IMG/VR virus record: IMGVR_UViG_2923307698_000004
Length of the DNA: 57,073 nucleotides
Origin: a virus
Taxonomy: Duplodnaviria; Heunggongvirae; Uroviricota; Caudoviricetes
Strand: one strand, 5' to 3'
Shown one piece after another: positions 40,001-43,000 of the stretch; the stretch's first letter is position 1; each line of letters opens with the position of its first letter. The position numbers are program-made.

Positions 40001-43000
40001 TCGCATTAATTTCTGACGTAAACGCGTACAGCGCAGGCTGATTACGCAGTACCTGTTCGATCTTCGCTTTCTAGGAAGCCTCACATTCACCATCTGCACA
40101 GGCCACCAGGTAGGCGGCGTTAATCACCACCTGTGCCAGATCGCGTTTTTCAAACTTTTTAATTTCCGTTGCCGCTCTGCGGGCTTTTTTTACCAAAAAT
40201 ACCAAACATCGTGACGTTCCTTTGGGTGGGTGAGCCAACGCCCGGGAGCGATCTGCCCACAGAGAAAGTCACACTGACCACTCCGTAAGCTCCCCCCCCG
40301 AAAGGCTCTGTGGTTGGTATGCGCCGGGCGTGGCGCAGATACAAAAAAGGCCCGCAAAAGCGAGCCGGGAAAATAAGTGTAGCGCGTTGTACTGGAGTCG
40401 AACCAGTGACCGATTGCTTAGAAGGCAATTGCTCTGTCCTGCTGAGCTAACAACGCAGAATACCGATAATGGACCACCACCGGGGACTCGAACCTCGCAC
40501 ACTCAACTTAAAGGGTTGACGCTCTTTCCTGATGGCTAGTGGCGGTTGGTGGCCCTTGCTGGATTTGAACCAGCGACCTGGCGATTATGAGTCGCTCGCT
40601 CTCACCACTGAGCTAAAGGGCCGGGCGCAGGATAATAACGTTACGAAATCAATGTTGCAAGCATACAAAAATCACCCTTATCTCCTCCACCAGCGCATTC
40701 ACCATGTCTATCCGAGATAAGTGGCACAACAAAACCCGCTTGTGGGCGGGTTTTGTTTGCTTTTGCCATCACGTACAAAATCGGCAAAATATCAGATTTG
40801 CATGAAATATATGCCTTTCAATCTACTTTTGCAACACTTTGCTTTGAAAATGCCGCCTTTTGTTTTGAACGTGTTCTCATTACAAATAATAAAGCCTCAC
40901 TATCCAGTCGGTGAAAAATGTGTTTCATTGCAACCCAGTGACGAGTAAATGTTTTGGACCAGTTTTTAGTTGTCACTCCCGCCAGTAATGCCAGCTCCTG
41001 ATATTCATAACCTTCCCCACCAAAAAGTTCTGCTTTTACTGCCTGCGCCGCCAGCCAGATTAATTTTTTCAGGCGTTCCTGCGTTTTCCCAGCAATTTTT
41101 CTGGTACCGGATTGAGTATTAAATTCATTCCACGCCCACTGTGTTATCGCGATCTGATATTCCCAACAAATACTCCCGCTGTAACACCACAACAACCAGG
41201 CTTTATGATGTTCTTCAAGAGACAGAACAGCCCGCCGCCACGATGATGTCGAAAACTCAACCGGACTGACCAGAGGAATTGACGTCACCTTCGCCAGCGA
41301 TTGCTTTCCCGGGATTGGTGGATTATCCCGCGTTATCATTTTTCCAGTCACTTCATCGCGGTACCGGATTTTTTTTCGCCTGTAACGCCCTGTATCGAAC
41401 ATTGAACCGCCCCGGTTTTCCTGGAGAGTGTTTTATCTGTGAACTCAGGCTGCCAGATCATCGTTTCTGATGGAAGCATAATAAGCTTTTTCTGCTTCTG
41501 CCGGAGGGATATGACCCAGCCTTCCCAGCAATCGTCGATTGTTATACCAGTCCACCCACGTGAGTGTGGCCAGTTCCACTTCTGCACGGTTTTTCCAGCT
41601 CTTACGGTGTATTACCTCCGCTTTGTAAAGACCATTGATGCTCTCCGCCATCGCGTTGTCATACGAGTCACCTGTACTCCCTGTTGATGCCAGCAGTTTT
41701 GCTTCTTTTAGTCGCTCCGTATAGGCCAGTGATACATACTGAGAACCTTTATCACTGTGATGGACTGTGCCGGACGGCCGACGGGCCCACAACGCCTGCT
41801 CCAGTGCATCCAGCACGAATGTTGTTTCCATGGATGATGAGACCTGCCATCCCACGATGTATCCGGCGAACACATCAATGATGAACGCCACATAAACGAA
41901 GCCCTGCCATGTGCTTACCCAGGTAAAATCAGCCACCCACAACTGGTCTGGACGTTCTGCCACGAACTGACGGTTTACGCGGTCGCATGCGGCAACGGCT
42001 TTCCGGCTGACGGTAGTGCGGACCTTTTTACCCCGGAGAACACCGGCAAGTCCCATAACCGCCATGAGACGTGCCACAGTGCATCTGGCCACTCTGATAC
42101 CTTCCCGTAACAACTGACGCCAGACTTTACGCACACCGTATACCTTGTGATTTTCATCGTATACGCGCTGTATCTCTTTCTTCAGCCAGTCATCGCGCTG
42201 CGCACGGGCACTGCGTTTATCCGGATGATGTCGCTGTTGCTGACAGTGGTAATACGTTGACGGGGCAATATGCAGTTCGCTGCATAGCGGTCCGACCCCG
42301 TACTGCTCACGCAGCTTATCCAGCAGTGGCATCATTTTTTCCAGAGGCGGTCGAACTCCGCCTTCGCAAAATAAGCGGAAGTCTGGCGAAGGATATCGTT
42401 ACTGCGGCGCAGTTCACGATTTTCACGTTCCAGCTCTTTCAGACGCTGACGTTCAGCGGTGGTGAGTCCACCATCACCACTCCCGGTATCCCGCTCATGC
42501 TGACGAACCCACACACGCAGAGTCTCTGGTGTACAGCCAATCTTTGGGGCAATGGAACAAATTGCCGCCCATTGTGAGTCATATTCGCCCTGACTTTCCA
42601 GAACCATACGAACTGCCCGTTGACGGACCTCGGGGGAAAAACGTGTATTTTTAGTCATCCTGTTTACCTCTTTCTCAGGGAGTTTAGTCTCCAGGATTCC
42701 CGGGGCGGTTCACATGGCATTCTCCTGCCAGGCTTCAAGCTGACCTTTTGTTGCCCCACTCAAATCAGCGGTGGCGATAATGAGCTGCTCACGCACAAAC
42801 TGTAAATAGTGGTTATTCATGCGCACTCCAGTTCTGTGATTTTTATCCCCAGCCGCCCACCAGGAACGAGCTGACCGCGCACAATATTGATTTCATCAAA
42901 CTGCTCGTCGTCTATGAGAAGTCCGGCATGCGTCAGCACATCCAGTGGTGCTTTCAGGATATTGTCCAGGTCACGACGGCGCTTATCCGGTGGCTCTGCA

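Follow-up and report, generated by a model that had tools for sequence, protein, structure and literature searches.

An eroded tRNA gene, most likely a relic, in the argN slot of a lambdoid prophage tRNA operon

The Stx phages 933W and 2851 carry three tRNA genes, ileZ-argN-argO, downstream of Q, and the second gene of the cluster, argN, specifies tRNA-Arg(UCG). The same slot, neighbours and operon signals are found in the window, which is a 57,073-nt stretch of viral DNA (Caudoviricetes; IMG/VR record IMGVR_UViG_2923307698_000004). Here the cluster lies downstream of Q in a lambdoid prophage, and a 76-nt element stands between ileZ and argO in the position that argN occupies (Table 1). The promoter-like sequence lies where the annotation of phage 933W places pT, a putative tRNA promoter, and the upstream sequence is identical in the alignments. 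Promoter-like and terminator-like sites enclose exactly the three tRNA genes. The host prophage is itself decaying, because its Q is split by an IS629-like element and a downstream TerB-family gene is broken.

The earlier note had proposed an alignment to argN and argO of Stx phages, and this alignment places the element as an argN-slot homologue. The element is 84.4% identical to the O157-type argN. The match to the phage 2851 argN-argO cluster extends from the T arm through most of argO, the first differences being two substitutions late in argO, one in the T loop and one in the 3′ CCA; the argO gene of the window ends in CUA instead of CCA. Like argN, the element has the unusual C1:G72 and U73 ends, and like the argN of phage 2851 it has G3·U70 and A51·C63. 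Unlike argN, it displays the anticodon UUU and not UCG, C33 and not U33, an anticodon stem UCAAC/GUUGA and a deletion of U12, and its covariance-model score is sub-threshold, compared with 54.8 bits for the argN of 933W.

Table 1. The three-gene tRNA unit of the window, in the direction of transcription, with positions inside the element listed last
Feature	Positions	Strand	Basis
Sigma-70-like promoter, TTGCAA, 17-nt spacer, TATTAT; immediately 5′ of the first tRNA	40632–40660	−	Promoter scan
ileZ-like tRNA-Ile2 (anticodon CAU), canonical	40547–40622	−	ARAGORN; Rfam RF00005, 72.5 bits; tRNA-Ile in RefSeq
1-nt spacer (A) between ileZ CCA and element C1	40546	−	Sequence and alignment
Eroded tRNA gene in the argN slot, 76 nt	40470–40545	−	ARAGORN, sequence, alignments, folding and covariation
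13-nt spacer, UUAUCGGUAUUCU	40457–40469	−	Alignment; identical to the spacer of the phage 2851 cluster
argO-like tRNA-Arg (anticodon UCU), canonical	40382–40456	−	ARAGORN; Rfam RF00005, 68.1 bits; alignment
Terminator-like GC-rich hairpin and T run, at the end of the three-gene unit	40339–40366	−	Terminator scan
Element: G3·U70 wobble, acceptor stem	40543/40476	−	
Element: site of missing U12, D stem	between 40534 and 40535	−	
Element: C33, anticodon loop	40513	−	
Element: anticodon UUU	40510–40512	−	
Element: A51·C63 mismatch, T stem	40495/40483	−	

The two flanking genes are clean tRNA genes, as the earlier note had found by hand folding (scores in Table 1). ARAGORN reports the middle element as tRNA-Lys, with anticodon ttt at position 34 and with exactly the boundaries proposed in that note. 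Read 5′ to 3′, the RNA is CCGCCAC UA GCC AUCAGGAAA GAGC G UCAAC CCUUUAA GUUGA GUGUG CGAGG UUCGAGU CCCCG GUGGUGG U CCA. The acceptor stem, T loop and CCA said to be retained are indeed present: the acceptor stem has 7 bp, of which six are Watson-Crick pairs and one is the G3·U70 wobble, the T loop is UUCGAGU, and the CCA is encoded, all as in a canonical tRNA. The anticodon stem, A14, G18G19, A21 and A37 are also intact. The loop CCUUUAA has C33, likewise as first described, and lacks the U33 of canonical tRNAs. The anticodon stem is a perfect 5 bp and UUU is followed by A37 A38, the arrangement of tRNA-Lys(UUU). The anticodon is thus lysine-reading, not arginine-reading, and the discriminator base is U73, where tRNA-Lys has A73. 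The identity elements for ArgRS are C35 and A20, and LysRS identity in E. coli resides mainly in the anticodon. The element retains A20 and has U at position 35, not the C35 of arginine anticodons.

The D stem of the element lacks U12, reading GC-C for the GCUC of its relatives. The pairs G10-C25, C11-G24 and C13-G22 are left, with A23 bulged, and no regular D stem of 3–4 bp stands between U8/A9 and A14. U12 is absent from the window allele by comparison with each of the 33 other aligned alleles. The D arm had earlier been judged non-canonical, which is correct, but the two mismatches then assigned to it came from a forced 4-bp register and are really a one-base deletion relative to the other alleles. 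The A51·C63 mismatch in the T stem and the G3·U70 wobble had been overlooked. The U12 deletion, C33 and A51·C63 strike features that are near-universal in tRNAs.

The calculated energy of the element's cloverleaf is −15.4 kcal/mol, compared with −23.3 for a non-cloverleaf fold of the same RNA and −22.3 for the cloverleaf of an intact UUU-anticodon allele of the slot that also has C33 (the UUU/C33 allele), values that disregard tertiary contacts and modifications; the minimum fold of the canonical 933W argN is also no cloverleaf. Minimum free energy folding as a measure of tRNA-likeness (z-score −1.36) is uninformative alone, as the canonical neighbours are likewise without a cloverleaf minimum.

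Covariance models give a graded picture. The gathering score of Rfam RF00005 is 29 bits. The element falls below it and is not reported by RF00005; its best match within the tRNA clan, to tRNA-Sec, is 15.7 bits, below the family threshold. This tRNA-Sec match, together with Plastid-ycf2, SNORD103 and similar matches around the cluster, is sub-threshold, and some of these are antisense look-alikes of the neighbouring tRNAs. The non-canonical status of the element thus withstood the predictor check that the earlier note had called for, in that ARAGORN calls a tRNA and the covariance model gives a low, sub-threshold score. Across the argN slot the alleles step down from canonical tRNA-Arg(UCG/UCU) genes at 53–56 bits (Arg(UCU) alleles, 53.5–55.6) to the intact UUU/C33 allele at 44.4 and the window allele at no more than 15.7.

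The element is not a chance tRNA look-alike, because hundreds of homologues occupy the corresponding slot elsewhere and because the cloverleaf covaries. Among 34 alleles the cloverleaf is 96.2% paired, five pairs (4:69, 7:66, 27:43, 30:40 and 51:63) have changed on both sides, and none of 500 shuffles reaches the observed score. These compensated pairs show that the ancestors of the slot alleles were real tRNAs. An att-site remnant of an integrating element was also considered and is ruled out, as there is one contiguous full-length copy between two intact genes and no partial duplicate.

Annotation pipelines conflict over the element. GenBank records of the PPompW prophage already name its exact sequence tRNA-Lys, a label that the earlier note did not foresee. 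The exact sequence is present in 221 complete E. coli genomes, and it is without annotation in all 10 of the RefSeq records listed among the 221. Strains with this allele include O111:H- 11128 and E2865. RefSeq does name the intact UUU/C33 allele tRNA-Lys, in hundreds of E. coli genomes.

Descent of the element from an arginine tRNA is supported by the alleles of the slot. The sequences closest to it are tRNA-Arg genes found in this slot and not lysine tRNAs, which gives no sign of descent from the bacterial tRNA-Lys family. The anticodon stem UCAAC/GUUGA is common to the element and to three Arg(UCU) alleles (L321, L324 and L331), and just two changes, U33C and C35U, separate their loop CUUCUAA from the CCUUUAA of the element. 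From L324 the intact UUU allele differs at seven positions and the window allele at nine. Among the IMG/VR matches listed, no other tRNA has the anticodon arm of the element. A foreign donor of the arm was sought in IMG/VR with the 17-nt arm preceded by a different base, and the matches listed were unrelated non-tRNA sequence and one G26A variant of the same family. Evolution in situ from Arg(UCU) alleles accounts for the anticodon arm better than a foreign donor. The window allele is 97.4% identical to the intact UUU/C33 allele and differs from it at two positions, U12 and position 70; this very common allele, also unforeseen in the earlier note, is evidently the immediate parent. The suggestion of a decayed arginine tRNA made in that note therefore stands as to arginine descent and progressive erosion, given the argN slot, the shared stem and the ladder of scores, but the element's own anticodon is UUU (lysine) and not arginine.

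With one genome per GTDB species, the element family is found only in E. coli and Shigella flexneri, and matches in other species to the loop-plus-T-arm pattern are all unrelated. The UUU/C33 parent allele accounts for 535 further genomes at 95–99% identity; it is present in at least 756 of 5426 complete E. coli genomes, about 1 in 7, and also in phages deposited under isolate names (vB_EcoM-606R7, PhiR47_1). The commonest cluster with the UUU allele is Ile2-UUU-Thr(UGU)-Gly. The same clusters show a second, independent UUU anticodon, in a thrU-derived gene with G35U that scores 74.2 bits.

The slot varies far more than the gene beside it. At the 133 ileZ-X-argO loci listed, nucleotide diversity is 0.19 in the slot, 0.0024 in ileZ, 0.050 in argO and 0.30–0.36 in the flanks; the slot has 62 alleles and ileZ six, and the slot evolves at about 80 times the rate of ileZ. 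In the Thr-Gly context the corresponding values for the loci listed are 0.038 for the slot, 0.0027 for ileZ and 0.014 for Thr. Next to argO, 46 of the 131 copies listed are lesion-free and 52 are length-changed, scrambled or deleted, so that about two thirds of those listed carry lesions, frequencies that are approximate because the IMG/VR locus samples are partly redundant and the argO-context census includes loci from a scan that selected the UUU stem. Next to Thr, five of the 120 copies listed are lesion-free, 83 have exactly C33 and A51·C63, and 26 have more lesions; UUU/C33 is the majority allele of the Thr-Gly loci listed. The anticodon arm is wholly gone at four loci (L138, L177, L184 and L323), and two others (L126 and L128) are scrambled. 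Among the loci listed, the slot is absent altogether at one (L129) and kept at more than 120. These values indicate that the slot is under relaxed constraint and that it erodes generally. Homology to functional tRNA genes, lesions at conserved positions and relaxed constraint together characterize a tRNA pseudogene, and the element has all three.

The element is most likely a relic and not a working tRNA. With a probability of roughly 0.6, it is a tRNA gene in decay, transcribed with its neighbours and probably processed by RNase P, that plays little or no part in decoding. It would then be a worn allele at the second position (the argN slot) of the small tRNA operon that lambdoid and Stx-type prophages have between Q and the late genes. 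Canonical tRNA-Arg genes, with UCG or UCU, would have occupied the slot first. The changes U33C, C35U and U63C may then have produced the loop CCUUUAA, the anticodon UUU and A51·C63, so that predictors say tRNA-Lys, and U12 would have been lost from the D stem afterwards. The 3′ acceptor strand including U70, the spacer and argO are of the phage 2851 type, which we read as a probable outcome of recombination.

The element presumably shares a transcript with ileZ and argO that starts at the promoter of the operon itself. RNase P could still cut at C1, 1 nt past the ileZ CCA, by way of the intact acceptor stem, T arm and CCA, and this would separate the RNAs. The freed 76-nt RNA, with its crippled D arm and core, would fold poorly and add little, if anything, to decoding. 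Should a molecule mature all the same, it would have the UUU anticodon, read AAA/AAG and be harmless; it would be a weak substrate of LysRS and not of ArgRS, because the C35 that ArgRS requires has been lost and the anticodon is UUU. Loss of function of the element is inferred. Weighing against such a loss, the exact window allele persists unchanged in the 221 complete E. coli genomes, but this may be clonal inheritance, as these are largely related STEC lineages.

The frequency of the UUU/C33 parent, in view of its 535 further genomes, its majority in the Thr-Gly context and its carriage by phages, is not predicted by pure decay. This raises the question of whether the element is still a working, if unusual, tRNA-Lys(UUU), in which the arginine anticodon has been switched from UCU to UUU, the loss of U12 is tolerated, and lysine decoding is perhaps supplied in a form that the anticodon-arm nucleases of the host or of rival phages (PARIS AriB, P2 Old, PrrC/RloC) would leave intact. 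We regard this as unlikely. The perfect 5-bp stem, UUU followed by A37 A38, and the leading part of the anticodon in LysRS recognition are what such a tRNA should have, but U73 in place of A73 is not, and the window allele, with its additional U12 deletion, scores no more than 15.7 bits. At the sequence level only, the arm does have the appearance of nuclease evasion. The arm lacks the AriB site as published, U36-A-A-U-C|A41, with GUU and not UCA at positions 39–41, and U39A by itself abolishes AriB cleavage (PMC12409363). The paired CNG at 28–30/40–42 cut by Old, which is CAG/CUG in the argN of 933W, is gone on both strands through the compensated 30:40 change, which leaves CAA/UUG (PMC12445682); but the stem offers only five pairs at which a change could fall, and that 30:40 lies within the Old motif may be chance. 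A C at position 33 is by itself compatible with function in at least one natural case, yeast tRNA-Leu(GAG) (PMC13492127).

The prime targets of AriB are tRNA-Lys(UUU) and tRNA-Thr(UGU), and it is with Thr(UGU) that the commonest UUU cluster pairs its UUU gene. The independent thrU-derived UUU gene of these clusters, and the presence of UUU/C33 in about one complete E. coli genome in seven, point in the same direction. Against this, the Thr(UGU) and Gly(UCC) genes beside the UUU allele are identical to chromosomal thrU and glyT and therefore are not resistant variants; a resistant Thr(UGU) like the tRNA-Thr of phage 21 is ruled out for the common cluster. In addition, the UUU family gains disabling changes at appreciable frequency, including a common U8C haplotype below 29 bits, G52A, stem mismatches and arm deletions. 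The literature searched for ileZ/argN/argO or a lambdoid tRNA-Lys gave no description of one, which also counts against a working tRNA. The broader proposal, that the UUU/C33 family is a functional arginine-to-lysine phage tRNA immune to the tRNA-Lys-directed nucleases (PARIS AriB, P2 Old, PrrC/RloC), with the window allele working without U12, is less probable again.

A role in cis has also been considered, in which selection would keep the acceptor/T-arm minihelix and CCA as an RNase P site after ileZ and leave the D and anticodon arms to drift. Minihelices of acceptor stem and T arm are substrates of bacterial RNase P, and in E. coli the enzyme separates some polycistronic tRNA transcripts. 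The single nucleotide between ileZ CCA and C1 is in keeping with such a role. Among 64 alleles the best-kept columns are the 5′ acceptor strand, the 3′ strands of the T stem and acceptor stem, the CCA and the spacer, but a small number of deep allele classes, together with recombination breakpoints, could account for conserved ends. The scrambled L126 and L128 still retain CCGCCAU...AUGGCGG-U-CCA and a GC-rich T-like hairpin. On the other hand, acceptor mismatches occur as A6·A67 (the common L144 class), C1·A72 and C2·A71 (L130), C4·A69 (L132) and A3·C70 (L183). Clean loss of the slot is rare (one locus compared with more than 120 retaining it, among those listed), but it indicates that the slot is dispensable, because the RNase P site of argO itself would then release ileZ. 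Preservation of acceptor pairing is therefore unconvincing as proof of a processing role, which is doubtful on present evidence.

Mischarging is very improbable: G3·U70, the main identity determinant for AlaRS, might lead a UUU-anticodon tRNA to put alanine at lysine codons, but phage 2851 argN and L331, otherwise ordinary tRNA-Arg genes, have the same G3·U70, which points to a wobble that is tolerated. The element also lacks A73 and G2:C71, which support alanine identity (it has U73 and C2:G71), and its defective D arm makes efficient use by any synthetase unlikely.

A decaying tRNA gene thus remains the preferred reading. The window alone means very little, a further example of gene erosion in a prophage that is defective. 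More is to be learned from the wider pattern. In the lambdoid tRNA operon the second slot is a natural series, from Arg(UCG) and Arg(UCU) to UUU/C33 and to damaged or scrambled copies, alongside a nearly invariant ileZ, and is a handy case of tRNA gene decay and anticodon shift in progress. It also suggests caution, in that a predicted prophage ‘tRNA-Lys’ should not always be counted as functional. With this slot it could be tested at little cost whether remoulded tRNAs serve temperate phages against anticodon-arm nucleases. Were the UUU/C33 allele functional and immune to such nucleases, it would parallel, in temperate phages, the T5 tRNA-Lys counter-defence, with a remoulded arginine tRNA as its source.

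Compared with known systems, the element most resembles alleles of its own slot. It shares the anticodon arm, the loop CCUUUAA, the T arm and A51·C63 with the UUU/C33 allele of E. coli O157:H16 Santai, vB_EcoM-606R7 and PhiR47_1, but the intact allele retains U12 and G3:C70 and most often has Thr(UGU) and Gly(UCC) after it in place of argO. With the tRNA-Arg(UCU) alleles L321, L324 and L331 it shares the anticodon stem, D loop and T loop; unlike the element, these have U33, C35 and a fully paired T stem. Like the T5 tRNA-Lys(UUU) and the phage 21 tRNA-Thr(UGU), which stand in for host tRNAs attacked by PARIS AriB and P2 Old respectively, the element is phage-borne, and it has UUU and a stem without the published AriB cleavage sequence and Old CNG (PMC12409363; PMC12445682). 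In contrast to those replacement tRNAs, it has a D-stem deletion, an arginine scaffold with U73 and membership in an eroding family, and any function or resistance on its part would be putative. The tRNA-Leu(GAG) of yeast also has C33, and its function is not substantially impaired (PMC13492127), but it is eukaryotic, unrelated in sequence and without additional structural lesions. As in tRNA pseudogenes and in tRNA gene remoulding, a point change at position 35 has probably turned an arginine anticodon into a lysine anticodon in a redundant copy, followed by disabling mutations. What differs from the typical case is the setting, a mobile phage operon in which many allele states coexist and recombine within one bacterial species.

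The window belongs to a lambdoid prophage of E. coli, and STEC chromosomes show 99.5% identity to the 10-kb stretch around the middle element, an eroded, tRNA-shaped sequence of 76 nt. In one of these chromosomes, E2865, the gene order is paa, hokD, DUF968, rusA, Q, the tRNAs, a TerB-family pseudogene, DUF3927, SASA esterase, holin and lysozyme, and the prophage records termed PPompW in GenBank have a tRNA cluster identical to that of the window. ARAGORN places three tRNA genes side by side on the minus strand, and its call for the middle gene has the same ends as those given in an earlier note based on the sequence. 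That note also held the flanking genes, ileZ and argO, to be clean, and they score 72.5 and 68.1 bits on the Rfam tRNA model. The argO-like gene is followed by CUA at 40380-40382, where phages 933W and 2851 have an encoded CCA, and its T loop is UUCGACU, not UUCGAAU. In phage 933W, the annotated counterpart of the promoter predicted upstream is pT.

The prophage itself is degraded. Relative to E2865, the Q antiterminator gene is broken ∼106 nt in by an IS3-family element, and the TerB-family gene is split, which agrees with the pseudogene ('internal stop') that RefSeq annotates in E2865. With Q interrupted, late-gene antitermination has probably been lost, and the tRNA operon would rely on its own promoter. 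Among the Rfam matches, STnc100 lies ∼0.8 kb 3′ of the tRNAs and sok adjoins hokD.

Features of the window around and beyond the tRNA operon
Feature	Position	Strand or location	Detail
tRNA (ileZ)	40547-40622	minus	anticodon CAU; ARAGORN
tRNA (middle element)	40470-40545	minus	anticodon UUU; ARAGORN
tRNA (argO)	40382-40456	minus	anticodon UCU; ARAGORN
sigma-70-like promoter	40660-40632	immediately 5′ of tRNA cluster	TTGCAA-17-TATTAT; predicted
GC hairpin with T run	40366-40349	immediately 3′ of tRNA cluster	predicted
IS3-family element	41403-42711		1.3 kb; IS629-like OrfB, 41445-42335; versus E2865
ALIL frameshift pseudoknot	42261-42377	within IS3-family element	
TerB-family gene	39777-40238	just 3′ of tRNA operon	short ORFs of 48, 59 and 55 aa
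isrC	12850-12972		Rfam, above threshold
STnc100	39436-39608		Rfam, above threshold
sok	45219-45368		Rfam, above threshold
DicF	52486-52537		Rfam, above threshold

The middle RNA reads CCGCCAC UA GCC AUCAGGAAA GAGC G UCAAC CCUUUAA GUUGA GUGUG CGAGG UUCGAGU CCCCG GUGGUGG U CCA. As noted earlier, its anticodon loop is CCUUUAA with C at position 33, the acceptor stem is intact, and the T loop and CCA are present. A D-stem lesion is present as well, but the two mismatches proposed there are rather a deletion of U12 (GCUC to GC-C versus relatives). Two further features had been overlooked: the T stem has a mismatch, A51.C63, and G3.U70 is a wobble pair. The element falls below the Rfam tRNA gathering score of 29 bits, and its top match in the tRNA clan is tRNA-Sec, at 15.7 bits. 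At identical loci, RefSeq annotates tRNA-Ile and tRNA-Arg only, with no feature on the exact 76-mer in any of the 10 matches listed. The PPompW records label the exact sequence tRNA-Lys, so the feature itself is already known.

The slot that holds the element, i.e. the second gene position of the lambdoid tRNA operon, is argN in the annotation of phage 933W (tRNA-Arg UCG, 54.8 bits). In alignment, the window and the phage 2851 cluster agree from the T arm onwards, across the 13-nt spacer and over most of argO, the first differences being two substitutions late in that gene; the 2851 argN allele already has G3.U70 and A51.C63. The G3.U70 pair is found in this Stx2c phage gene (L125, 1596-1672; annotated Arg(UCG)), in the window element and at L331. 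The 5′ two thirds of the element match a different, very common allele, the UUU/C33 allele, which has the stem UCAAC/GUUGA and loop CCUUUAA of the window, an intact D stem and G3:C70. It scores 44.4 bits, is named tRNA-Lys by RefSeq and usually lies in a cluster of Ile2(CAU), UUU, Thr(UGU) and Gly(UCC). Judged from these alignments, the window allele is the UUU/C33 form lacking U12, with a 3′ end of the 2851 type joined to it. The CCUUUAA loop (C33, anticodon UUU) occurs sporadically in unrelated full-length tRNAs of MAGs from distant phyla (L257, L290, L262, L269, L271, L280 and L301).

A scan anchored on ileZ and the Thr gene only reveals canonical tRNA-Arg(UCU) in the slot at L321, L324 and L331 (53.5-55.6 bits), with the anticodon stem of the UUU allele, U33 and a T stem paired throughout. 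Seven positions distinguish the UUU allele from L324, with U33C, C35U and U63C among the changes. Only two transitions therefore separate the 'lysine' anticodon loop from an arginine loop with UCU. Across 34 alleles, cloverleaf pairing is 96.2%, five pairs (4:69, 7:66, 27:43, 30:40 and 51:63) are altered on both sides, and the covariation score is reached by 0 of 500 shuffles; on this comparative evidence the slot lineage descends from real tRNAs. The decayed arginine tRNA suggested previously is borne out as to Arg-slot descent, through the argN and L324 relatives, but the anticodon is now UUU, of the lysine type. No description of the allele series, from Arg(UCU/UCG) through the UUU/C33 form to damaged copies, was found in the literature searched.

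Among the 133 ileZ-X-argO loci listed, nucleotide diversity is 0.0024 in ileZ, 0.050 in argO, 0.19 in the slot and 0.30-0.36 in the flanks, and the slot has at least 62 alleles versus at least six for ileZ. In the Thr-Gly context, the values among the loci listed are 0.0027 (ileZ), 0.038 (slot) and 0.014 (Thr). Lesions were counted as stem mismatches plus changes at near-universal positions. The proportions are approximate, since the IMG/VR loci behind the diversity and census figures are partly redundant and the argO-context census also took in loci from a scan selecting for the UUU stem: among the loci listed, 46 of 131 slot copies adjoining argO are lesion-free, 27 have at least three lesions, and in 52 the slot is deleted, scrambled or of altered length. 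Adjoining Thr, again among the loci listed, 5 of 120 copies are lesion-free, these being Arg(UCU), 83 have exactly C33 and A51.C63, 26 have extra lesions (including a common U8C haplotype below 29 bits) and six are length-changed. The anticodon arm is gone at L138, L177, L184 and L323. Scrambled alleles (∼30 of the 139 loci listed, e.g. L126, 1595-1694; L128, 1595-1699; L218) retain their acceptor ends and a T-like hairpin rich in GC, but the middle is unrecognisable and there is a poly-G run of 5 to 12 G. The exact window allele is present in 221 of 5426 complete E. coli genomes, and 95-99% identical alleles, mostly annotated tRNA-Lys, in 535 further ones.

From the sequence, the scores and this population pattern, all directly observed, we infer with a probability of roughly 0.6 that the middle element is a co-transcribed, RNase P-cut and poorly folding tRNA with little or no decoding role. 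The element would share a single transcription unit with ileZ and argO. RNase P recognises the acceptor/T-arm helix and CCA. These are kept, and 1 nt separates the ileZ CCA from C1 of the element, so the enzyme may be expected still to cleave at C1, releasing ileZ. The freed RNA, with its bulged 3-bp D stem, C33 and T-stem mismatch, would fold and mature poorly and contribute little or nothing to decoding. Any matured fraction would have a UUU anticodon without C35, for which lysylation is predicted to be weak and the reading of AAA/AAG harmless. With the canonical cloverleaf imposed, free energies are −28.3 (933W argN), −20.1 (2851 argN), −22.3 (intact UUU allele) and −15.4 kcal/mol (window allele), whereas the window RNA, left unconstrained, reaches its minimum of −23.3 kcal/mol in a fold other than the cloverleaf; tertiary contacts and modifications do not enter the energy model, so these values are supporting evidence only.

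Perhaps the slot is retained as an RNase P punctuation signal, as both acceptor strands, the CCA and the spacer are conserved across 64 alleles, scrambled ones included. This is unlikely, however, given several alleles with acceptor mismatches and a prophage in IMG/VR (L129, 2113-2153) whose slot is cleanly deleted, leaving 1 nt between ileZ and argO.

Residual function as a nuclease-resistant tRNA-Lys is likewise doubtful. The anticodon-arm nuclease PARIS AriB cuts host tRNA-Lys(UUU) and tRNA-Thr(UGU) after C40, in U36-A-A-U-C/A41, and U39A abolishes cleavage (PMC12409363). The UCA at 39-41 is absent from the UUU lineage, which has GUU and might escape on that account. P2 Old cleaves paired CNG motifs (positions 28-30 and 40-42), its signature including A37, and phage tRNA-Thr(UGU) counteracts it, the gene of lambdoid phage 21 being one example (PMC12445682). 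These positions are CAG/CUG in 933W argN versus CAA/UUG in the UUU lineage. The 933W gene (L003, 1604-1680), with paired C28-A-G30/C40-U-G42 and A37, is therefore a predicted P2 Old substrate. Residual function is further favoured by the tolerance of C33 in yeast tRNA-Leu(GAG) (PMC13492127) and by a thrU-derived third gene that independently gained a UUU anticodon at 7 of the 121 loci listed (74.2 bits). Against it are the additional U12 deletion in the window copy, the erosion still going on within the UUU family, discriminator U73 in place of A73, and the identity of the neighbouring Thr and Gly genes to chromosomal thrU and glyT.

The UUU form of this thrU-derived gene in Ile2-X-Thr-Gly clusters, as at L036 (3483-3555) and L321 (5307-5379), represents a second, independent position-35 change to a lysine anticodon in these phage operons; it has the loop CUUUUAA and A26G and is otherwise perfect. 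Thr(UGU) and Gly(UCC) of the common cluster (L001, 1675-1828) show 100% identity to thrU and glyT in Salmonella chromosomal matches, where tyrU lies between the two. The prophage cluster thus resembles a fragment captured from the thrU-tyrU-glyT operon of the host.

Mischarging with alanine through G3.U70, the main alanine identity pair, is most improbable because the pair is also present in ordinary argN alleles and the remaining alanine identity elements are missing.

Both in the way it would work and for classification, the closest match to the middle element is a tRNA pseudogene, or an allele of the phage argN slot undergoing erosion. The element departs from canonical tRNAs in score, D stem and U33, from argN in its anticodon, and from the tRNA-Lys family in discriminator and ancestry. 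With the nuclease-evading phage tRNAs it has in common the sequence-level character alone.
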